Made by a program: the position numbers and the translations under genes. A DNA stretch of 64,000 nt, taken from an uncultured Verrucomicrobiota bacterium. Lineage in GTDB: Bacteria > Verrucomicrobiota > Verrucomicrobiia > CAZIPW01. The notes beneath the pieces are model-generated. The model was not told where the DNA came from. It worked only from the letters and a program-made list of their open reading frames with translations, and made no database searches. Of this stretch, positions 9,103 to 31,512 are shown piece by piece. Numbering within the stretch: position 1 is the first letter of the stretch; each line of letters starts with the position of its first letter. The stretch lies in the NCBI GenBank assembly GCA_964541675.1, contig CAZIPW010000001.1, positions 1,447 to 65,446 of the forward strand. The letters are read 5' to 3'.

Positions 9103-10035
9103 ATGCGTATTTTAGTCACCGGCGGAGCCGGGTTTCTGGGTTCGCATTTGTGCGAGCGGCTTCTGCGGGAAGGCCACAAAGTCACGGTTTTGGACAGCCT
9201 CCAGACGGGGAGCCTCCGGAATATCGCGCATCTGAAGAAAAACATGGCTTTTGAGTTCATCAAGGGAGACGTTACCGAACGTTACCAACTCAGTGCCGAC
9301 TGGATCTTCAATATGGCCTGTCCGGCCTCTCCGGTCCAATATCAGAAGAATCCCCTCAAGACAATTTCCACAAGCCTGCTGGGCATGGACAACGCCTGCC
9401 GCTGCGCGATACAGAATGGCGGCAGGGTACTGCAGGCATCCACCAGCGAGATCTATGGTGATCCGACAGTCCATCCCCAGCCGGAGAGCTATTGGGGACA
9501 CGTCAATACGCTCGGACCCCGCGCCTGCTATGACGAGGGCAAGCGCGCATCGGAGACGCTCTGCATGGAGTACAACCGCCAACTGGGACTTGATGTAAGG
9601 ATCGCGCGGATCTTCAACACCTATGGTCCCCGCATGGCGCTCGATGATGGCAGGGTGGTCTCCAATTTTATCATACAAGCCCTCAAAAACAGACCCATTA
9701 CCGTCTATGGCCAGGGCCGGCAGACGCGTTCATTCTGTTATGTCGACGATTTGATAGAGGGAATTCTGCGCATGATGAAACAGAAAAAGACGGTCGGACC
9801 GGTCAATATCGGGAATCCCGGTGAATTCACGATCCTGGAGCTGGCCGAGGCGGTCTTGGAGCTGACGAAGAGCCGCTCGAAGATCATCTTCAAGCCCCTG
9901 CCTGCCGACGATCCCCGCCAGAGATGTCCCGATATCAGTCTGGCCAGGAAAGTTCTCGGAGGTTGGAGGCCGAAGGTTCAGCTGAGGGAGGGTCTGGAAA
10001 AGACCATAGCGTATTTCAAGGGCGTGCTAAGGTAG
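9103..10035 (+). CDS. UDP-glucuronate decarboxylase (UDP-xylose synthase), SDR family
   Basis: [54 protein letters not shown]. Confidence 0.92.
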
Positions 10036-10039
10036 CCTT

Positions 10040-10060
10040 GCCATCGGTTTCAATCGGTGG
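10040..10060. repeat. REP-like hairpin GCCATCGG-TTTCAA-TCGGTGG
   Basis: 20/21 identical to the reverse complement of 18732-18752; lies just after a stop codon. Confidence 0.7.
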
Positions 10061-10068
10061 TGACGGTT

Positions 10069-10671
10069 TTACTCGCTCTTCAATGTTGGTTCAAAGACGC
10101 GTTCCATCTTTCCTTTTTCAAGCTTGATCACCTCGCTGTTGCCGAATATCCCCCTCGGGCGGATCGGTTCATTCAAGAGATCGAAGGATTGCAGAAACTC
10201 CAGAATAAACGCGGTTCCCGATCCCCCGTGCAGGACAATCAGGGTGGGAGAGGGACTCTCCGGCAGCTTTTCGTCAATGAAGGCGCGCAGCCGCGTACGC
10301 AACATCCCGGCCGATTCACCCCCCGGATGCGCCAGATCGGGATGCTTCGCGAGGTTCCTCACCGAGAATGTCTCTCCCATCTCTTTGAAGGGAACGCCCT
10401 CGTATATCCCGCAATGGATCTCCCTTAGCCGCCCGTCAAACTCCACGGGTATGCCCGGAAGATACAAGGCCTCAAGGGTCTTGCGGGTGCGGCCCTGTGG
10501 CGAGCAGAAGATCCTTTTTATGCCTTTGTCCCTTAAAAAGATTCCGGCCTGCCTTGATTGTTCATAGCCCTCGGGGAGCAGATTGCTCTCAAAACCGGCT
10601 CCGGCGACTATCTCGTCCCGGTTGGCATCGGTGAAGCCGTGGCGAATGAGGTAGAGGACAGGGTAGGTCAT
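10069..10671 (-). CDS. Histidine phosphatase family protein
   Basis: LYLIRHG, FCSPQGRTRKT, LREIHCGIYEG, GGES, VLHGG. Confidence 0.88.
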   Translation of the reverse strand: MTYPVLYLIRHGFTDANRDEIVAGAGFESNLLPEGYEQSRQAGIFLRDKGIKRIFCSPQGRTRKTLEALYLPGIPVEFDGRLREIHCGIYEGVPFKEMGETFSVRNLAKHPDLAHPGGESAGMLRTRLRAFIDEKLPESPSPTLIVLHGGSGTAFILEFLQSFDLLNEPIRPRGIFGNSEVIKLEKGKMERVFEPTLKSE

Positions 10672-11231
10672 TCCTCCTCCTGCCAGCGCGGCGAAAGGCT
10701 GTTTTCAATCCCCATGTGATCCAGAACGCGTCCCACGACGCTGTCAAAAACGGCGGTGAGGTTCTGCGGTCTATGGTAGAAAGACGGATTGGCCGGCAGA
10801 ATCGTGGCACCCGTGAGCAGGAGCAGCTCGAAGTTTCTGACGTGTACCAGGCTCAAGGGGGTTTCCCTCGGGAGAAGGATGAGCTTCTTTTTCTCCTTCA
10901 AGGTCACGTCTGCAGCCCGCAGAAGCAGATCGGAGCTGATGCCGTGGGCGATCCGCCCGAGAGTACCCATTGTGCAGGGAATGACAACCATCGCGTCCGC
11001 GGGATTCGAGCCACTCGCGAAGGGGGCGTTCATGCTTTTGATGTTGTGAACGGTTGCTTTGGCAGGAATTTTGAGTCCGCCTGGGATCTCTTCGCTTAAA
11101 ACCGCCTGCGCGTAATTGCTCAGAATAACGTGCAGCTCGTGCCTGGCGGTATCGAGGTTATCGAGCAGCCGCTGCGCGTACATACTTCCGCTTGCTCCCG
11201 TGATGGCCACGACAATCTTCATGGAAGTCAT
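10668..11231 (-). CDS. ubiX: Flavin prenyltransferase
   Basis: VAITGASG, ASGS, PCTMGTL, LLRAADV.LKE, PRETP, PSFY. Confidence 0.95.
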   Translation of the reverse strand: MTSMKIVVAITGASGSMYAQRLLDNLDTARHELHVILSNYAQAVLSEEIPGGLKIPAKATVHNIKSMNAPFASGSNPADAMVVIPCTMGTLGRIAHGISSDLLLRAADVTLKEKKKLILLPRETPLSLVHVRNFELLLLTGATILPANPSFYHRPQNLTAVFDSVVGRVLDHMGIENSLSPRWQEEE

Positions 11232-11264
11232 TATGAACCAAGAAGTGCTTTTAGCGATTCCAAA

Positions 11265-11933
11265 CTACCTGCCATTACTGATGGGTGAATGCTCATCAGC
11301 GGGACAGAATCCAGGCATCCAGCGGCCGTTTTTCGCGGTCAGATATTCAAGGGCAAGCTCCGGATTCCTCGGACGATTTGGAAGGAGGCGGTAGACGCAA
11401 CAGTTGGGGACTCCAATGGAAAAGCCGCTGGTGTATTCGAGGTTAAAGTACCTTATGAAGAGTGAGCGAAAAGCCCCGATCGAACTGCAAAACGCCAGTT
11501 TGCCTCCTTTGGCAGAGGCAATTATGGGGAAGGCGTAATTACCAATTCTCTGCATCACACGGCCGTGCGATTCTCCACCCTGGGGCGCGTAATTGCGGTC
11601 GGTTCGCACCTTCACAAAGGCTTCGACGATCCGGGGATCGGCAAATGGCAGTCCTTCATAGTCTCCCCAGCGACACTCTATAATTTCAGGCGCCATGACT
11701 AGACGGCCTCCCACTCCGGTCCAACTGATTGTCTGCCGGGCGCGTTGAAGCGGAGCGCAATAGACCGCCTGGTATACGGAATCTTCTCCAACGCGTGCCA
11801 ATAGGCCTTTGAGCGCCATGCAAGCCTTGATGCCTCGTTGGCTTAAGGGAGTGTCCCTATCACCTCCGCAAATGACATGATCGTCATTATCCCTCGTGGG
11901 CGCATGACGGTATAAATCAACGAAAGTCTCCAT
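11265..11933 (-). CDS. Histidine phosphatase family protein (divergent)
   Basis: LYRHAPT, DTPLS..G, CAPLQRARQT, ECRWGDYEG, GGES. Confidence 0.75.
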   Translation of the reverse strand: METFVDLYRHAPTRDNDDHVICGGDRDTPLSQRGIKACMALKGLLARVGEDSVYQAVYCAPLQRARQTISWTGVGGRLVMAPEIIECRWGDYEGLPFADPRIVEAFVKVRTDRNYAPQGGESHGRVMQRIGNYAFPIIASAKGGKLAFCSSIGAFRSLFIRYFNLEYTSGFSIGVPNCCVYRLLPNRPRNPELALEYLTAKNGRWMPGFCPADEHSPISNGR

Positions 11934-24674: not shown

Positions 24675-27386
24675 ATGCCCGAGATTGCAAAAAACTATGA
24701 CTTTGCGACGCTGGAGCCATATTGGTATAACGAGTGGCTTCAAAAAGATGCGTTCAAACCCGTCGTCGGAAAGAAGCTGAATTTCCTTGAGCGCCTCATG
24801 GGCAAAAAAGAGGAGACCTATACCATAGTCATTCCTCCTCCCAATGTGACGGGAGTCCTGCACATGGGACACTTTCTGAACAATACCCTGCAGGACGTCC
24901 TGATTCGCCGCGCGCGTCTTGAAGGCAAAGCTGCCCTCTGGATTCCGGGGACCGATCACGCGGGGCTGGCCACGCAGGTCCAGGTGGAGCGCTCCCTGCG
25001 AAAAGAGGGCAAGACTAAGCACAATATGCCCCGTGAGGAGTTCATGCAGAGGATCCTTCAATGGTGCGAGCTAAATGGCGGTACGATCTTAAAGCAGCTC
25101 AAGCGCATGGGTTGCAGTTGCGATTGGAGCCGTACGGGTTACACGATGGATCCCGCCTACCATCGGGCGGTGCTGCACGCCTTCGTGAAGCTTTACGAGA
25201 AGGGCTATATTTATCGCGACTACCGCATGGTGAACTGGTGTCCAGTAAGCCTCACGGGACTGAGCGATGAGGAAGTCATCATGAAGGAGGAAGAGGGAAT
25301 CATGGTCCATATGAAGTACGAGCTGGTGGAGCATCCCGGCGAATTCATTGAGATAGAAACCACCCGTCCCGAGACAATCATGGGTGATACTGCCGTGGCA
25401 GTGCATCCCAAACATCCCAAGTACGCCAGATACATCGGCAAACACGTCTGGAGGCCGTTTCCAAAAGCACAGATCCCCGTGATAGGGGACGAGGCTATTG
25501 ACTTGAATTTTGGAACTGGTGTCCTAAAAGTGACCCCAGCACATGACAAGGTGGATTTTGATATGGGTAAACGTCACCAGCTACCCGTGATAAATGTTTT
25601 TAATCCGGATGCGTCTTTGAATGAAAATGCCGGTGAGAGATATAAAGGCATGACGCGTGAGAAGGCCCGCGAAGAGTCAATCAAACAACTCAAAGAAATT
25701 GGGCTCCTCATAGCCGTGAAGCCGTACAAGCACTCCGTGGGTTACTCCGAACGCGCGGGGGTGCCGATCGAGCCGCGCTTAAGCGTGCAGTGGTGGCTCA
25801 AATATCCTCATGTGGAAGAGGCCAAACAGGTGGTGCGCGGGGGTCTGATCAAATTTCATCCGGCCCGCTGGGAGAAAGTCTATTTCAACTGGCTCAATAA
25901 CATCCAGGACTGGTGTATCTCGCGCCAGGTGATCTGGGGCCAGCGGATTCCCGTGTGGTACAGGAAGGGCACAGACCGTGAGGATCCGAGGAACCGTCAC
26001 TGCAGCATCGATGGTCCCGCTGACAGGGAGAACTGGGAGCAGGATCCCGACGTGCTCGATACCTGGGCTTCCTCGTGGTTGTGGCCGCTGGCTACAATGG
26101 GCTGGCCTGATGAGGCTGCCATGAAAAAGGCCCAGCTGGACAGTTTTTATCCGACGTCGACCCTTGTCACAGGCCCCGATATCATCTTCTTCTGGGTTGC
26201 CCGAATGATTGTGGCGGGACTGGAATTCCGCAGCGGCGCTCTCAATGACAGGATTCCCTTCAAAGACGTGTACTTTACCAGCATGGTCCGCGACGCTGAA
26301 GGCCGCAAAATGAGCAAGAGTCTGGGCAACGGCGTGGATCCGCTGGCGCTCTTTGAACAGTACGGTGCCGACGGTTCGCGCTTCGGTATTGTCCGCAATG
26401 CCCCCACTGGTCAGGACATCGCCTTCAGCGAGGAAATGGTCGAGTTGGGACGAAACTTTTGTACCAAGTTATGGAACGCCTCGCGCTTCCGCCAGATGCA
26501 GGGAATCCGGGAGGCTCCGGCTAGCCTGGATGAACTGCTCTGCGGTATCTCTCCCGAAAAGCTCGACGCCTACGACCATTGGATACTCGCGCGGCTTGTT
26601 GAGACGACGCGTCTCGTGGAGAAATGCTTCGCGGGGTTCGATTTTGCCGCGATGGGCAACGGGCTGTACGCTTTCTTCTGGGGGGATTTCTGCGACTGGT
26701 ATGTGGAAGCCTCAAAAGCGCGTCTCAAGGATGAGACCCAGAAAGCCCATATCATCGCGATTCAGGACGTCGTTCTCCGTCAGACTCTGCAGCTATTGCA
26801 TCCGATTATTCCGCACATCACGGAGGAGCTGTGGAAGCAGATGTCTTTTGCGCCGGAGGGCAAGCTGATACAGCAGTCCCCCATCGTGGGTGCCGCAGAT
26901 CTGCAAAAGAGGCTCGTCGCGCGCGGTTTGAACTTCAAAGAATCCGCTTTTGTGAGCCAACTCGCGGAGCTGGTTGAGGCTGGACGTGCGCTCAAGGCCG
27001 ATGCTGGAATGAGCGCCAAGCGCGACGTGGATTTTGTCCTCAAAACCGAGTCCGCCGCATCCGTTGAGCCGCAGCTGGAGGTACTATGCCGCTTCTTGGG
27101 CGCCAAAAAAATCATCCTGACCACCCAAGACAAGGCCAACGCTCCAGCGCGCGTGACGCCACTTGGCACGATCTATCTGGATTTGACAAGCGCCGTTACC
27201 GCCGAGGACAAGGCCAAGTTAAAAAAGCAGTTGGAGGAGATTCAGAAAGCGATTGCGTCCGCGAAGGCCAAACTGGAGAACCCGGCTTTTACCGGCAAGG
27301 CTCCGGTAAGCGTTATTGACGGCGTGAGGGCTACAATGGAGACCAATGTCAAAAAAATGGCTGAGCTTGAGAGGCTGATCGGGTAG
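24675..27386 (+). CDS. valS: Valine--tRNA ligase
   Basis: PPPNVTGVLHMGH, DWCISRQ, DVLDTWASS, KMSKS, C-terminal coiled coil with F..KAP. Confidence 0.98.
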   Translation: MPEIAKNYDFATLEPYWYNEWLQKDAFKPVVGKKLNFLERLMGKKEETYTIVIPPPNVTGVLHMGHFLNNTLQDVLIRRARLEGKAALWIPGTDHAGLATQVQVERSLRKEGKTKHNMPREEFMQRILQWCELNGGTILKQLKRMGCSCDWSRTGYTMDPAYHRAVLHAFVKLYEKGYIYRDYRMVNWCPVSLTGLSDEEVIMKEEEGIMVHMKYELVEHPGEFIEIETTRPETIMGDTAVAVHPKHPKYARYIGKHVWRPFPKAQIPVIGDEAIDLNFGTGVLKVTPAHDKVDFDMGKRHQLPVINVFNPDASLNENAGERYKGMTREKAREESIKQLKEIGLLIAVKPYKHSVGYSERAGVPIEPRLSVQWWLKYPHVEEAKQVVRGGLIKFHPARWEKVYFNWLNNIQDWCISRQVIWGQRIPVWYRKGTDREDPRNRHCSIDGPADRENWEQDPDVLDTWASSWLWPLATMGWPDEAAMKKAQLDSFYPTSTLVTGPDIIFFWVARMIVAGLEFRSGALNDRIPFKDVYFTSMVRDAEGRKMSKSLGNGVDPLALFEQYGADGSRFGIVRNAPTGQDIAFSEEMVELGRNFCTKLWNASRFRQMQGIREAPASLDELLCGISPEKLDAYDHWILARLVETTRLVEKCFAGFDFAAMGNGLYAFFWGDFCDWYVEASKARLKDETQKAHIIAIQDVVLRQTLQLLHPIIPHITEELWKQMSFAPEGKLIQQSPIVGAADLQKRLVARGLNFKESAFVSQLAELVEAGRALKADAGMSAKRDVDFVLKTESAASVEPQLEVLCRFLGAKKIILTTQDKANAPARVTPLGTIYLDLTSAVTAEDKAKLKKQLEEIQKAIASAKAKLENPAFTGKAPVSVIDGVRATMETNVKKMAELERLIG

Positions 27387-27529
27387 GGAATGTATTGTTT
27401 CTTGCGGATGCCGAATTCCGTTCCAGTTTTCGTTTTTCCTCTTTTCAATTGCTCACTTTCAAACAATGGTTATACTTGTATATGTAGAATATATCTTTTT
27501 ACTCTATATGTTATCCAGGTCATCCCCGT

Positions 27530-28240
27530 ATGAAATATTCTCTGATTCTAGTTGGTTCTCATGATGGCAGTAAGACAGAATCCTTTGTAAAAGAAAGGGC
27601 CTGTCGTGGGAATGTTCTACTTGTTGAACCTGTTCCTTGGTTATTTGAAAAACTAAAAACAAGATATGCTGAAATAAAATCGATAGATCTGCTGAACGTT
27701 GCAATTACCGAGGAAGATGGTGAATTTACGTTTTATAGTCCGACCGATTCGGCCAATACCATTCAAGACTACGGTGACCAGCTGGGTTCTTTGAATCCGA
27801 ACCATGCCAAACTTCATGATGAAAGATTTTCGGACAAGATTGAAGCCATAAAGGTTCGTGGAATATGTTTTGAGACGCTTATAAAAACATTTGATATCGA
27901 TGCCGTTGAAATGCTCATGACTGACACGGAAGGTTATGACACGAGGATATTGTCAAAGTTTCCTTTCTTATACTTAAAGCCGGAAAAGATATTGTTCGAA
28001 CATAAACATAGCGATGGAGTTTACAATGTAGGGAGAAATCTATCTCAACTATTGGTTATACTTGAGACATTTGGGTATAAGATGACGATTATAGATGCCG
28101 AGAATACCATGGCTGTTCTGGAAAAAAGGCATCCGCTATCGAGGGGTGTGTGCGCGGTGGATTTACAGCCAAAGCGTCAGGGAATTGATCCGAAGAGGCT
28201 TCACTACTTTGACGATGTGATGGCGTGTAGTGTCCGATAG
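27530..28240 (+). CDS. FkbM-family methyltransferase (AT-rich, probably acquired)
   Basis: VGSHDG, VEPVP, NVAI, DTEGYD..IL, KPEKILFEH; visibly more AT-rich than valS. Confidence 0.85.
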   Translation: MKYSLILVGSHDGSKTESFVKERACRGNVLLVEPVPWLFEKLKTRYAEIKSIDLLNVAITEEDGEFTFYSPTDSANTIQDYGDQLGSLNPNHAKLHDERFSDKIEAIKVRGICFETLIKTFDIDAVEMLMTDTEGYDTRILSKFPFLYLKPEKILFEHKHSDGVYNVGRNLSQLLVILETFGYKMTIIDAENTMAVLEKRHPLSRGVCAVDLQPKRQGIDPKRLHYFDDVMACSVR

Positions 28241-28306
28241 GGCGTAAAGGCAGATATGGATGACAATGTCAAAAAAGTGGCCGAGCTGGAGCGGCTGATA
28301 GGGCAG
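28241..28306 (+). pseudogene. Diverged remnant of the valS 3' end
   Basis: GVKADMDDNVKKVAELERLIG vs valS GVRATMETNVKKMAELERLIG; 57/74 nt identical for 28241-28314 vs 27321-27394. Confidence 0.85.
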
Positions 28307-28338
28307 GGGGTGTATAATATAATATATTTATTAGTCAA

Positions 28339-28375
28339 TAATATTTACCGCCTTTAAAAAAGGAGCTACTGCAAC
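28339..28375 (+). CRISPR. Single CRISPR-like repeat, copy A (no tandem array)
   Basis: TAATATTTACCGCCTTTAAAAAAGGAGCTACTGCAAC, 37 bp, preceded by AT-rich sequence with TATAAT boxes; the inverted copy lies next to cas2. Confidence 0.65.
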
Positions 28376-28411
28376 CAAGTCTGGAGCCGTTGCATTTTGA
28401 CTAAAGTTCTG

Positions 28412-28624
28412 TCACTTGAAGCCGATATTGAAATGGCCGTGCGCCTGGAGCCGACTAATTGATGCTGTATGACGCTTTTGGACTATAATCTGCGGAAGGG
28501 GCCCTCCGCCGCCGCAAGCGACAAAAGCCTCAGCTTGGTCACATCTCACAAGATATACACCCTTGTCAATAAGCTTGCCTTCCGAAACCATCAGTCCTAC
28601 TATTACCAGTTGAGTAACCCACAC
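28412..28624 (-). CDS. Hypothetical 70-aa ORF inside the bracketed fragment
   Basis: ORF only; no motif recognised. Confidence 0.3.
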   Translation of the reverse strand: MWVTQLVIVGLMVSEGKLIDKGVYLVRCDQAEAFVACGGGGPLPQIIVQKRHTASISRLQAHGHFNIGFK

Positions 28625-28628
28625 CGTT

Positions 28629-28952
28629 ATGACAAGCGCAAGTTCTAAACTTTACCGAGGGTACCGCCTAAGCTCTCGTGCGCTCGTCGTGTCAGTCAAC
28701 GGAGTTCCACTACAAACCCGTCCTGATCTGCGGCCCGGCACAATCGCCGACTTCTTCGAATGTGGATACGTGGGAGCCGGTCCGCAACTGCTCGCGCTGG
28801 CGATCCTCGCTGATTTCCTGCACAACGATCGTATAGCCATTGAAAAATCTACTGCCTTTGAAAGAAATGTGATTTCACACCTTCCTAAGGACCGCTCATG
28901 GGCTCTAACATCACGTGACGTAGCTGACGCGCTAGTCTTGCTTGGCTCTTAG
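28629..28952 (+). CDS. DUF6166-like protein (mobile-element associated)
   Basis: Y.G.R...V.V.G.PL..R.DL....F.CGY.GAGPQLLALAILAD...D..A......F...VI..LP....W.LT pattern. Confidence 0.75.
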   Translation: MTSASSKLYRGYRLSSRALVVSVNGVPLQTRPDLRPGTIADFFECGYVGAGPQLLALAILADFLHNDRIAIEKSTAFERNVISHLPKDRSWALTSRDVADALVLLGS

Positions 28953-29767
28953 CTCGGACGCGCTGTGATTGCCGCTAGCTCGCGGCGTCGGTTTTTTAGC
29001 ACGACAATTTTCGAATCATAGGGAGACCGCGAAAGTATATCCACACTCGACAATAACTCGTTCTCATTACCCAGAATAACCTGTAACATCGCCTGACGAT
29101 AGGTTAACTCTTCCATAAGCCGCTTTTGGACATTATCAGAAATGTCCAGCAATTTGGTATCACACAACCGAATCTCAGTCAGACCAGGAACTCGCTCGTG
29201 GTGGTGAATAGGCTTAAATGTTTGCAGAGCCAGAAGGCTCTCAGTCACAAGCTCTGAGGCCCTCTCTACTTCATCGCGTGGTGCCCTCGCAATCTCATCA
29301 GGAGTCGCCTGCTCCTGCGTCAATAACAGACTCCGTGTACAGTACTCACGGACAACTTTATCAACCTGTGCCTTCGCAAAATGCGCTTCGCAGTCCCAAA
29401 GGCATGTCCAAATACGAGGAAAAACCCCTGCCACTATTAAGACAACACAAGCGGCAACTATGACGGGCAGATCCCATCCGCAACCAAAATACGAGTGAAA
29501 ACATATGTAAGGGACAGCCACCACCGCAAGTGTGCCTACATACAAGGTCCTGGCGCGATCTCGGTGAGCGGCCTCGTTCGATTCACGCCATTTTTCTTCC
29601 AGAAAAGCGCCATTTGTATCGAGAATGTGCTCCACCATCTTTGCCCCTAACCATACCAACGTTATTACTAAGGCGCCACTCGTATGATTCTCGGCCGAGA
29701 TAATCCAGTCCGCTATAACCCCACTAAGAAAGCAAAGCGCGATAAAAGTGGGAAAGGCCACCAACAC
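28949..29767 (-). CDS. Hypothetical membrane protein, probably 5'-truncated
   Basis: About four hydrophobic segments then a helical soluble domain. The frame stays open upstream of the GTG across the repeat junction (..TYRIGWDVLVAF). Its stop overlaps the DUF6166 stop by 4 bp. Confidence 0.65.
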   Translation of the reverse strand: MLVAFPTFIALCFLSGVIADWIISAENHTSGALVITLVWLGAKMVEHILDTNGAFLEEKWRESNEAAHRDRARTLYVGTLAVVAVPYICFHSYFGCGWDLPVIVAACVVLIVAGVFPRIWTCLWDCEAHFAKAQVDKVVREYCTRSLLLTQEQATPDEIARAPRDEVERASELVTESLLALQTFKPIHHHERVPGLTEIRLCDTKLLDISDNVQKRLMEELTYRQAMLQVILGNENELLSSVDILSRSPYDSKIVVLKNRRRELAAITARPS

Positions 29768-29786
29768 GTCCCAGCCGATACGGTAA

Positions 29787-29823
29787 GTTGCAGTAGCTCC
29801 TTTTTTAAAGGCGGTAAATAATA
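29787..29823 (-). CRISPR. Single CRISPR-like repeat, copy B (inverted relative to A)
   Basis: Minus strand TATTATTTACCGCCTTTAAAAAAGGAGCTACTGCAAC, 36/37 identical to copy A, 29 bp downstream of the cas2 stop. Confidence 0.65.
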
Positions 29824-29852
29824 CTATATATTAAGACTCGTCATAACAACAA

Positions 29853-30164
29853 CTAAGATGCTTGGACTAATTCAAACGAGAGGGGTTGCTTGGTTAGTTT
29901 TTCAACCAATGGTGAGGGGAGTGTACTCTCTTCCACACAGGATTTACACAAATACACGCAAAAAAATCTGTCCGTCTTGCGCGTAAGCAGGCTTTTCAAT
30001 TTCGACTCAAATTTTGTTCTTTCTTTGGCGTATAACTTTCCGATGAATACGCGGTGGGATAACTGCATAAGCCCGTAGTCTCTGCACCATACTCTTGCCC
30101 TGTTGAGACACCTCCGGTTACGTGTCTCCCATCCAATCAGGACAAAGAAGGGGAAATTATTCAT
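29853..30164 (-). CDS. cas2: CRISPR-associated Cas2 (divergent)
   Basis: Overlaps the cas1 stop by 8 bp; 103 aa; VLIGWET...RARVWCRDYGLMQLSHRVFIGKL...DRFFCVYLCKSC matches the Cas2 layout (YD replaced by WE). Confidence 0.8.
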   Translation of the reverse strand: MNNFPFFVLIGWETRNRRCLNRARVWCRDYGLMQLSHRVFIGKLYAKERTKFESKLKSLLTRKTDRFFCVYLCKSCVEESTLPSPLVEKLTKQPLSFELVQAS

Positions 30165-31167
30165 GGGAGGAAAGCAAATCGACGACGTCAAAGGCTTTAT
30201 ACCGGGTTTCCCTACCAATAAAATAACGCGCCAAAAAACGAATTTGTTCTTCAATAATCCGTTTTAGAGAGCATCTCTTCTTCTTCCACTGAGCATTGGC
30301 ATTTAGATTCTTGAAGACAGCCTCGACGACAATGCCTTTGCCTGCCGCCGAAAGCTGATTTTGACCTTCTTTGTTTTGCTCAAAGAATTCCGATTTGACG
30401 CGTTTATCGGCAAAAATAGGAAACAGGGCGGCATCAACAATAGGCACGCGAAACTCTTCCACAAGGTCGCAGACAAGAGCAGGTTTGCCATACCGTTCGG
30501 TGTGGTACAGGCCAACGTACGGGTCAAGTCCCACATAAAGGCACGCGCGTTCGACTTCATTGTACAGTATCCCGTAACCGTAGTTAAGCATACTATTGTA
30601 TTTGTCATGTCCCTGTGGCGCTCGTCCGGGGAACCGGCACAATTTTTTCAGACAGCTGAAATATCGATCAGCGATATAGCCCTCCATGCCCAAGAGCTGT
30701 TCTTTGCCCTTATCGCTGACGGACAAAAAATCAATCGAATCAAAGATTGTCTGGGCTTGAAGCAGCTCCACGGAGAAATCCCTCTTGTATTGATAGCCCA
30801 GATAACGAATATAGCTGATTTGGTTCGCGCATTTGCCTTGGACCAACACTTTTGCGAGATCGAATGATTTCTCGTGGCTGTTCGAGATTTCCAATTGGGA
30901 CTTCCTAATACTGGCCAGTCCCTTCGGTTCGCTGGAAAAAAATCGCCCCATTGGTCTGCCAAAAGCGCCGAGATATACAATATCGACATCGTGGGCAAGA
31001 GCCAATTGAACTGCGTGCGTGGTCAGGGACGCCGGGCGTAGGATGACTATCTTGTCCAGTCGACGAATGGGATATTCCTTCTTCTCCTTTATATCGGGAA
31101 ACGAGAGGGCGATGCGTTCGCCCGTGGTGCCAATCTTAGTACCGTAAGTGTCTATAAGTAAGTCCAT
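30157..31167 (-). CDS. cas1: CRISPR-associated endonuclease Cas1
   Basis: QLLGMEG...YF, NSMLNYGYGILY, GLDPYVGLYH, LVCDLVEEFRVPIVD; catalytic E/H/E present. Confidence 0.96.
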   Translation of the reverse strand: MDLLIDTYGTKIGTTGERIALSFPDIKEKKEYPIRRLDKIVILRPASLTTHAVQLALAHDVDIVYLGAFGRPMGRFFSSEPKGLASIRKSQLEISNSHEKSFDLAKVLVQGKCANQISYIRYLGYQYKRDFSVELLQAQTIFDSIDFLSVSDKGKEQLLGMEGYIADRYFSCLKKLCRFPGRAPQGHDKYNSMLNYGYGILYNEVERACLYVGLDPYVGLYHTERYGKPALVCDLVEEFRVPIVDAALFPIFADKRVKSEFFEQNKEGQNQLSAAGKGIVVEAVFKNLNANAQWKKKRCSLKRIIEEQIRFLARYFIGRETRYKAFDVVDLLSSHE

Positions 31168-31315
31168 AAGTTTAATACGTGAGAACTATAAGGTAACATA
31201 TACCTAACAGTAAGTAAAGGACAAAAACTCGTTTGCAATGCACTGATACAAATTTTTCCAAGATCTCTTGCTCAGAACAAAGTGCGTTCACCGATCGAGC
31301 CCCCTCCCAAATTTC

Positions 31316-31480
31316 TGCTATAATACCGCCTGACTGAAAAATTGTTCTCTGACATTTTATTTCTCCACGACAAGCGCTGGAGAACCGTATCGGGGAAAGT
31401 ACGCCACGTCCCATCCAAGAATGTCCACGCCCCGATATAATTAAGCAATAAAGCACTAATCTTCACTGTAAAACAGTGAG
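31316..31480 (+). ncRNA. Putative small structured RNA divergent from cas1
   Basis: Extended -10 TG-C-TATAAT (31316-31324), 8-bp stem TATCGGGG/CCCCGATA (31388-95/31430-37), terminal hairpin TCACTG-TAAAA-CAGTGA (31463-79). No expression evidence. Confidence 0.3.
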
Positions 31481-31512
31481 ATAGCAGTGATGATAAGGCA
31501 ATATCGGTATCC

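Follow-up and report, generated by a model that had tools for sequence, protein, structure and literature searches.

The 64-kb window analysed here, the whole of a stretch of contig CAZIPW010000001.1 from an uncultured Verrucomicrobiota bacterium, raises the question of what a cas1-cas2 pair of the CRISPR type is doing beside two inverted copies of a 37-nucleotide (nt) repeat that bracket 1411 nt of DNA. The original prediction for this locus included the idea that Cas1-Cas2 captures or mobilises gene-sized DNA between the repeats, either as a giant spacer or as a mini-casposon. Comparison with relatives of the window Cas1 points toward the first of these: the locus was probably acquired horizontally and belongs to a family of effector-less Cas1-Cas2 modules, derived from CRISPR, in which kilobase-sized DNA is stored between 37-nt repeats.

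The repeat pair itself is as predicted. A pattern search allowing up to three mismatches found TA[A/T]TATTTACCGCCTTTAAAAAAGGAGCTACTGCAAC only twice in the window, at 28339-28375 on the forward strand (copy A, TAATATTTACCGCCTTTAAAAAAGGAGCTACTGCAAC) and at 29787-29823 on the reverse strand (copy B, TATTATTTACCGCCTTTAAAAAAGGAGCTACTGCAAC), and none of 100 dinucleotide-preserving shuffles gave a match. The copies are identical at 36 of 37 positions, the sole difference being A/T at base 3, and both point inward, with the ...TGCAAC end toward the 1411-nt insert. Copy B, the cas2-proximal one, has the orientation of the first repeat in the family described below and begins 29 nt past the cas2 stop codon; copy A is distal and inverted relative to it. 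An inverted-repeat tool extends the pair to 48 nt (88%), but the outer 11 nt match at only six positions and lie in AT-rich DNA, so 37 nt is taken as the true unit. Beyond AT-richness, no target-site duplication is seen in the outer flanks (ATATTTATTAGTCAA and CTATATATTAAGACT). Exact-pattern scans with a 24-mer and a 21-mer from the repeat gave no match in genome, metagenome or viral collections, so this variant is unseen outside its own population.

The predicted lack of a tandem array, cas4 and effector in the window was likewise borne out by TRF, Rfam, tblastn, PADLOC and Pfam. TRF found no tandem array and no Rfam CRISPR repeat family matched; where a CRISPR array would have tandem direct repeats with spacers of ~25-50 bp, the window has two inverted copies 1411 bp apart. 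Among its 43 long open reading frames (ORFs), Cas1 is the only cas family detected by PADLOC, or by Pfam among the matches listed, the others being housekeeping genes, and tblastn with proteins of the nearest conventional loci (including two Cas12f-like queries) found no Cas12f or Cas4 in the window.

The window cas1 (30157-31167, reverse strand) encodes a 336-aa protein that matches Pfam Cas_Cas1 (4.6e-65) and TIGR00287 (9e-70), while none of the subtype-specific Cas1 models reaches its cut-off. Residues E162, H222, D234 and E237 are invariant in a 32-sequence alignment of Cas1 from its clade. The best solved structure is that of the CRISPR Cas1 4N06 (A. fulgidus; 9.5e-30, aligned end to end), against 4e-18 for the casposase 6OPM, and compared with its nearest relative, at locus L005, the gene has a proportion of nonsynonymous differences (pN) of 0.11 and of synonymous ones (pS) of 0.84. 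The cas2 gene (29853-30164, reverse strand; 103 aa) overlaps the cas1 stop codon and is divergent, with a Pfam CRISPR_Cas2 match of 1.7e-4 that lies below the cut-off. Its product is, however, 28-49% identical to that of the gene after cas1 in every clade locus, and the clade Cas2 profile aligns with a profile of type V-F-like Cas2 proteins (hhalign 97.7%, E 1.5e-12), with a CxxC motif in common, although GWET stands in place of the canonical N-terminal YDI. Judged by these profile comparisons, the clade protein is a true Cas2. The window therefore has what is expected of a Cas1-Cas2 adaptation module, a Cas1-family protein with its catalytic residues and an adjoining cas2 gene.

What such a module might do is suggested by its relatives. 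Cas1 proteins 53-81% identical to that of the window form more than 120 clusters (at 90% identity), the named ones being from Patescibacteria, or the candidate phyla radiation (CPR), to which most of the clade belongs, and they are set well apart from other Cas1 proteins. Identity falls from 54-75% directly to 33% or less in a one-genome-per-species scan; scanning metagenomes brought in a small number at 40-47%, besides a group at 35-38%, and conventional Cas1 proteins are at most ~40% identical. In a neighbour-joining tree the clade is monophyletic on a long branch beside V-F-like Cas1, and the window Cas1 and that of L005 (81% identical) are sisters nested among CPR sequences. The L005 host has a guanine-plus-cytosine (GC) content of 0.55 and its cas genes 0.47, as in the window. 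Together, the nesting within CPR and the low-GC cas genes in hosts of GC 0.55 point to transfer out of CPR. No clade Cas1 was found on viral contigs, phages or plasmids.

Repeats beside these genes were located with a hidden Markov model built from the repeats of 14 relatives, in a set of 35 non-redundant clade loci whose flanks were inspected for ~10 kb. There are 76 repeats, 75 of them direct, with between one and eight per locus, and they are confined to the cas2-distal side and co-oriented. The first begins 2-38 nt past the cas2 stop codon, and in 22-23 of 25 unique loci (G)GCT stands directly before it; this motif is absent before 40 internal repeats, and its restriction to the first repeat marks a classic leader-repeat junction. 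Repeat copies differ between loci and are identical within a locus, save for three copies with one mismatch each. Within-locus identity and a leader junction at the first repeat are features of CRISPR arrays, and the family has both, whereas the window pair matches at 36/37 and lacks the GGCT. Between the repeats are 39 inserts of 140-4242 bp (median 1379 bp), 11 of them in the range 1250-1500 bp, which is also the class into which the window insert falls. Smaller length groups are found near 0.65 kb and at 2.2-2.5 kb. The cas1-cas2 unit itself (1467 bp plus repeat) is of similar length to the peak at ~1.4 kb, for which no ruler or substrate source accounts. The pattern is seen in short- and long-read assemblies of unrelated projects, including a closed 876-kb chromosome (L011, OY969557.1). 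Eighteen loci show a single repeat and are "empty" in this sense; in some the contig stops at the repeat, and in others it runs on for kilobases. The short-read contigs of L004, L008, L012, L020, L022, L090 and L091 stop in or just after the first repeat, as they should where there are multiple copies of the repeat or where arrays vary in the population.

The original prediction, which treated the inverted repeats as a signature of the system and asked whether the neighbourhoods of Cas1 homologs would show single inverted repeats around different inserts, is thus upheld in one part. Different inserts do occur beside the homologs (35 loci, no effector or cas4 within ~10 kb), which strongly backs the giant-spacer idea, but they lie between direct repeats, and a single inverted repeat is not a recurring layout: the only inverted copy in the family is at L006, where a proximal repeat, 1365 bp and an inverted repeat reproduce the window arrangement. 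The inverted distal copy in the window, as in L006, is an exception to the direct-repeat rule. The mini-casposon form of the proposal fares less well, as discussed below. None of the findings that could have undercut the proposal as a whole emerged, since the relatives have no ordinary arrays with a standard effector, no 37-mer turned up apart from cas genes, and independent assemblies agree.

The window repeat is recognizable as a member of this family by its length and by one half of its sequence. The family consensus, CCTGCACAnnnnnGTCGCAAAAAGGAnATTGTGCAAC, has a terminal palindrome (TGCACA/TGTGCA) with 84% of cells paired and fold z-scores of -2.4 to -3.1. The window repeat aligns with family repeats without gaps over the shared 37 nt, but only the 3' half (AAAAAGG...TGCAAC) is held in common; its 5' half is an unrelated AT-rich sequence without the palindrome or 5' arm, and its fold z-score is -0.4. 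Relative to a type V-F repeat (~37 nt, with GTTGCA...TGCAAC termini), it has the length and the 3' TGCAAC and lacks the 5' arm, which the family repeats have. The 29-nt linker between the cas2 stop codon and copy B (29824-29852, reverse strand) is AT-rich and in the leader position, without the family GGCT motif. A 76% relative, L178, retains the canonical repeat. The window thus shares with the family a Cas1 within the clade, cas2 and a 37-nt repeat lying less than 40 nt past the end of cas2, but not direct repeats, a palindrome in the repeat or the leader motif. With the palindrome arm and GGCT both gone, the window copy is atypical and probably decaying.

The family inserts are 87% covered by ORFs and show no similarity to one another. 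Their Pfam and PHROG matches are to cellular or accessory functions, among them methyltransferases, outer-membrane barrels, dnaX, an IS200 transposase, dehydrogenases, dCTP deaminase, polyprenyl synthase, MazF and a kinase. A phage origin was considered and rejected, there being no virion genes among these matches. Many genes are cut at a repeat border, including an ndk fragment, a Ser/Thr kinase beginning at subdomain VIII with no N-lobe, a dnaX without ~18 5' codons, an MFS transporter, an NHL-repeat protein and a C-terminal piece of an RHS protein. Deleting the repeat in silico does not rejoin ORFs, the median open arm being ~25 codons against ~59 at control points inside inserts; the one long ORF across a repeat-deleted junction (L021, 16001) joins an N-terminal FAD-monooxygenase fragment to a TraG-like C-terminal one, in phase by chance. 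Insert GC is more variable than that of the host flank and usually lower, and no protospacer-adjacent motif (PAM) or other end motif was found at insert borders. One insert shares 191 nt with the metagenome-assembled genome (MAG) it comes from. Given the unrelated content, the cut genes and the failure of ORFs to rejoin, the inserts are separate kilobase fragments rather than tidy cassettes or resident sequence interrupted by repeats. In one case (L011, 19058-19443) the insert is an ndk fragment lacking its N-terminus, with GC 0.55 against 0.37-0.48 in neighbouring inserts; ndk also flanks the window island, which is a coincidence.

The original prediction had noted that repeats of this length ending in TGCAAC occur in type V-F-like systems, and that cue was right. 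The nearest conventional loci (L096, L104 and others, with Cas1 35-38% identical) are type V-F-like, with Cas1, Cas2, Cas4 and a Cas12f-like protein of 591-617 aa that has Cas12f1-like TNB and RuvC domains. Their arrays are ordinary, with 37-nt repeats (GTTACACA/GTTGCACA...ATGCAAC) and spacers of 35-40 nt. The likeness extends to Cas1 and Cas2, for which these systems are the closest conventional match, to the leader-anchored first repeat and to the 37-nt repeat length, terminal palindrome and related termini (GTTGCACA...ATGCAAC in the V-F-like loci, CCTGCACA...TGTGCAAC in the family). At the level of sequence comparison, the family is shown to descend from a type V-F-like adaptation module. 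It differs from such systems in having no Cas12f or Cas4 within ~10 kb, irregular spacers of 140-4242 bp rather than 35-40 nt, spacers that are cellular gene fragments, and a Cas1 clade on its own long branch. By tblastn, neither Cas12f nor Cas4 was found in the clade loci; only the conventional ones (L040 and above) gave Cas4 matches. No effector genes are listed for L005-L007, L170-L177 and L180 in their gene tables either. With none present, there is no known route by which the array could guide interference.

A leader-anchored repeat, its exact duplication in situ, one-sided co-oriented growth, unrelated inserts and conserved Cas1-Cas2 are together the footprints of CRISPR-type integration. 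In the mechanism proposed, Cas1-Cas2 would attach a long linear DNA by both of its 3' ends to the repeat nearest the leader, one at each border, and gap repair would then duplicate the repeat. These steps are those of CRISPR adaptation, minus any length ruler, trimming by Cas4 or choice of a PAM. A long, unmeasured substrate is in keeping with Cas4 having been lost and recalls the chemistry of casposases. In the absence of an effector, such an array would be a record of DNA capture, and possibly a route of gene acquisition, rather than a library of guide RNAs. The broader claim that follows, that the clade Cas1-Cas2 is a natural integrase of kilobase DNA, a former CRISPR module minus Cas4 and Cas12f that writes long environmental, host or self DNA and duplicates its repeat each time, is put forward tentatively, its chances falling a little short of even. 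In the window, the 1411 bp would be one captured fragment and the inverted distal repeat secondary, most likely through capture of repeat-carrying DNA or else through later rearrangement.

The module appears to be maintained. Between diverged copies, the ratio of nonsynonymous to synonymous substitution rates (dN/dS) is 0.06 for cas1 and 0.24-0.46 for cas2. In one MAG (MFD05512.bin.1.167), cas1-cas2-repeat units that are 99.8-100% identical are found at several loci with wholly different inserts. The unit in question is 1504 bp long, made up of 102 bp upstream, cas1, cas2 and the repeat, and it is also 97-100% identical at different sites in L013, L014 and L029 (one MAG), L023 and L015, at ~9899-11402 in each. 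Its ends are sharp (from TGTCCACGACGGGGACCC... to ...GTGTGCAAC), and it occurs at four or more loci in long-read MAGs labelled FCPU426 and "uncultured proteobacterium", with no obvious target-site duplication or inverted end. From this distribution, the cas1-cas2-repeat module itself seems to be mobile. In L035 (9966-11120), a 5'-truncated cas1 (residues 95-333) and cas2 lie between two repeats and are 100% identical to the intact copies of the same genome (MFD05512.bin.1.167), so cas or array DNA can itself end up between repeats; truncated cas1 pieces near repeats are also seen in L034, L037 and L038. Upstream of cas1 no left-end motif shared across the clade was found; what lies there is ordinary promoters, joined in several loci by a tRNA gene. 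Among CPR genomes, the module directly follows a tRNA gene in L007, L011 and L019 (within 100 bp upstream of cas1), and one lies slightly further off in L031. Genes for tRNA are common landing sites of integrated elements.

Several points weigh against this account of the family and the window. The mechanism is deduced from its footprints, no integration event having been observed, and contigs that share Cas1 P0011, P0031 or P0060 carry the same arrays where sequence is available, so that strain-level turnover of arrays was not found and turnover is read from paralogous copies only. The flanks were covered for ~10 kb, and these genomes may have an effector elsewhere, or an array in which short spacers separate this repeat. 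The concentration of insert lengths near 1.4 kb has no explanation. The nearest relative, L005, has no recognizable repeat, and this, with the missing 5' arm and GGCT, means that this Cas1-Cas2 may never have integrated the window insert. With a complete gene (for a DUF6166 protein) and a possibly complete ORF, the insert is less fragment-like than those of many relatives, and its 272-aa ORF has no relatives that would point to a source. The weakest part of the account is the orientation of copy A, because canonical Cas1-Cas2 integration alone cannot invert a repeat and the window needs an extra, unproven step.

Other explanations start from that orientation. If the 37-mer were the terminal inverted repeat of a mini-casposon or transposon, the 1485-bp unit at 28339-29823 would be a non-autonomous element moved in trans by Cas1, or Cas1-Cas2. 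An inverted 36/37 pair does adjoin an intact Cas1 gene, a comparable pair surrounds 1.4 kb in L006, and the spread of the 1504-bp unit over at least four loci in the FCPU426 and "proteobacterium" MAGs means that something in the family is mobile. The window unit itself shows little sign of movement, however: there is no target-site duplication, similarity stops at 37 nt, and neither the window, the collections searched (genomes, metagenomes, viruses) nor any of the loci yielded a second copy. The conserved TGCAAC ends face inward, unlike transposon termini, 75 of the 76 relatives' repeats are direct, the Cas1 resembles those of CRISPR systems more closely than it does casposases, and the island has no family B polymerase. 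This form of the original prediction is accordingly judged quite improbable. An alternative that is somewhat easier to entertain, though still unlikely, is that the locus is dead and its DNA never captured, the inverted copy being left over from a second module or array in the opposite orientation, or from a segmental duplication that was inverted. It would account for the degenerate 5' half of the repeat and the absent leader motif, and it suits a rearranged neighbourhood, with a relic of valS 23 nt from copy A and a low-GC FkbM-family gene inserted next to it; several genomes also have multiple modules with truncated cas1 beside repeats (L034, L035, L037 and L038), and L005 has lost its repeat. 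Yet no second trace of cas1 or cas2 lies beyond copy A, where the valS relic is found instead, and the copies match at 36 of 37 positions, so that, measured against how far the repeat itself has diverged, their duplication is recent. The Cas1 has kept its catalytic residues under long-term purifying selection, and the insert length falls in the modal class of the family.

Two further readings are each given very little weight. One is an invertible DNA switch, with the 37-mers as recombination sites and the 1.4-kb segment flipping so as to alter expression of the DUF6166 gene or the 272-aa ORF. The inverted repeats do surround a pair of convergent genes, with the best promoter-like match immediately outside copy A and directed inward, and one short-read contig breaks at the repeat; but a break at a repeated 37-mer is expected in short-k-mer assembly anyway, three long assemblies have a single orientation, the island has no invertase or recombinase gene, and the repeat belongs to a cas2-linked family in which copies are otherwise direct. 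The other, equally hard to credit, concerns the family as a whole: the 37-mers might be scars or insertions resembling miniature inverted-repeat transposable elements that spread into resident DNA beside cas2, leaving "spacers" of ordinary host sequence. The mostly cellular, non-viral insert genes would fit, as would the insert that copies its genome's own cas1-cas2 and the one that shares 191 nt with its MAG. The behaviour of the borders does not, since removing the repeats fails to rejoin genes (~25 against ~59 codons) and unrelated truncated genes abut them, and the repeats are exact 37-mers without leader remnants, co-oriented and on the cas2-distal side only, around inserts whose GC departs from that of the host. 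Misassembly was also considered and is ruled out by three independent, identical assemblies.

If the window locus is a member of the family that stores long DNA, as preferred here, its insert (28376-29786, 1411 bp, GC 0.505) would be the stored fragment. No further copy of it was found in the window or the fetched loci, except in the same population. It contains a complete gene for a 107-aa DUF6166 protein (28629-28952, forward strand; Pfam DUF6166 3.3e-17, covering profile positions 1-91 of 93), which has no relatives in viral contigs and is followed by a predicted terminator-like hairpin at 28970-28987 (forward strand). Convergent with it is the 272-aa ORF (28949-29767, reverse strand), which has a membrane-protein-like N-terminus and no Pfam or NCBIfam match; among 5.8 billion proteins only itself was matched. 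Its frame stays open through copy B to a TAA at 29831-29833, and its 5' end may have been cut at the repeat border. The possibility that the insert is a degenerate or inverted copy of cas1-cas2 was rejected, both ORFs being unrelated to Cas1 and Cas2 (hhalign probabilities <1%). Just outside copy A, a sigma-70-like promoter match (28295-28323, forward strand; CTGATA-17-TATAAT, 10 of 12 positions, by consensus match only) is the best in the island and is aimed into the insert toward the DUF6166 gene, although the total of such sites in the island is not above shuffled expectation. With this site outside copy A and the hairpin after the gene, the captured DUF6166 gene could be transcribed through the repeat.

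The locus lies in an island at ~27396-31512, between valS and ndk, with GC of 0.36-0.50 in a host genome of ~0.55 (0.552, against 0.468 for the cas genes). Its right edge is an AT-rich region upstream of cas1 that reaches to ndk (31168-31512, reverse strand), with GC of 0.42-0.48 against 0.55-0.60 in the flanking housekeeping genes. Toward its left edge, at 28241-28315 (forward strand), a repeat-family search found a relic copy of the valS 3' end, 77% identical to 27321-27395 and reading in frame as ...NVKKVAELERLIG. The duplicated 75 nt correspond to the last 66 nt of valS and 9 nt past its stop codon, and the relic ends 23 nt from the outer end of copy A. The space between the two valS 3'-end copies (27396-28240) is filled exactly by an FkbM-family methyltransferase gene (27530-28240, forward strand; Pfam Methyltransf_21 6.7e-11, TIGR01444 3.3e-12), whose GC of ~0.39 is the island's lowest. 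As far as the sequence indicates, this duplication looks like homology-anchored insertion of foreign DNA, or like an old integration at the valS 3' end. Elsewhere among the 43 window ORFs, PADLOC gave strong single-ORF candidate matches to SspH (8e-54), mad2/mad8 and a type II nicking endonuclease.

The best named relatives of the host's ValRS are from Verrucomicrobiota/Opitutales and only ~57% identical, so the host is taken to be a deep-branching Verrucomicrobiota bacterium. The valS neighbourhoods of relatives with 70% and 67% identical ValRS are not syntenic with the window and hence uninformative about an empty site. Three further assemblies, made independently (ERZ27250145, JGI 3300014160 and ERZ27249851), contain the 4.2-kb island at 100% identity, and the samples with the island are peat metagenomes. 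A fourth contig (L004, Logan SRR6181340), from a short-k-mer assembly, stops inside copy B at the equivalent of window position 29791.

How far the family differs from systems already described can be judged from several comparisons. Stand-alone cas1-cas2 modules without effectors have been noted in surveys of CRISPR-Cas evolution (PMC6452270, PMC5704561), and like them the family consists of effector-less cas1-cas2 derived by effector loss from a known subtype. The described modules, however, are scattered in conventional subtype branches and are taken as remnants or as serving arrays in trans, whereas the family, with its own repeat and kilobase inserts, forms a clade that is large (clustering at 90% identity gives more than 120 groups), conserved and under purifying selection (cas1 dN/dS of 0.06). 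With casposons it has in common a Cas1-family integrase that would handle kilobase DNA without a ruler, an insert bounded by inverted repeats in the case of the window, and a 1.5-kb unit that is multi-copy in some genomes. It differs in the lack of a family B polymerase and of target-site duplications, in the presence of Cas2, in its direct repeats duplicated in situ, and in inserts without conserved ends. No polymerase family was found in the island ORFs by Pfam and NCBIfam, or among the first 25 of the 74 window Pfam families, and both the better structural match to 4N06 than to 6OPM and the position beside V-F-like Cas1, in a tree short of a full phylogeny with casposases, set the protein apart from casposon Cas1.

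In its general plan the family also resembles integrons, with an integrase gene beside a one-sided, co-oriented array of kilobase inserts, short palindromic sites and a possible reservoir of genes. The integrase here is Cas1-Cas2 and not a tyrosine recombinase, no integron recombinase (IntI) was found in the island, and the inserts are often truncated fragments rather than promoterless complete ORFs. The near-identity of the repeats within a locus indicates that they are copied from the locus, not carried in by cassettes as attC sites are. No description of a Cas1-Cas2 clade with kilobase spacers was found in the searchable literature, including the 2025 CRISPR-Cas classification (PMC12669027), and the long-insert family is apparently undescribed. 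It would count as a new kind of system if integration of long DNA were demonstrated. To our knowledge, every characterized Cas1-Cas2 measures its substrate and inserts ~30-40 bp; casposases, at the other extreme, insert whole transposons.

If the proposal is correct, adaptation machinery can work alone as a DNA-capture system, and the proposed path from casposons to CRISPR would become testable with living intermediates between casposon-type integration and ruler-based spacer acquisition. A guide-free, site-specific kilobase integrase that duplicates its own target site would also be of interest to tool builders. The window matters mainly as the entry point to the family and as evidence of the module moving between phyla. 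CPR bacteria take up foreign DNA and are largely without CRISPR immunity; for them the family would, if the proposal holds, suggest a route of gene acquisition, an integron-like platform for capturing genes and gene fragments in these ultra-small cells and in occasional recipients such as the Verrucomicrobiota host of the window.

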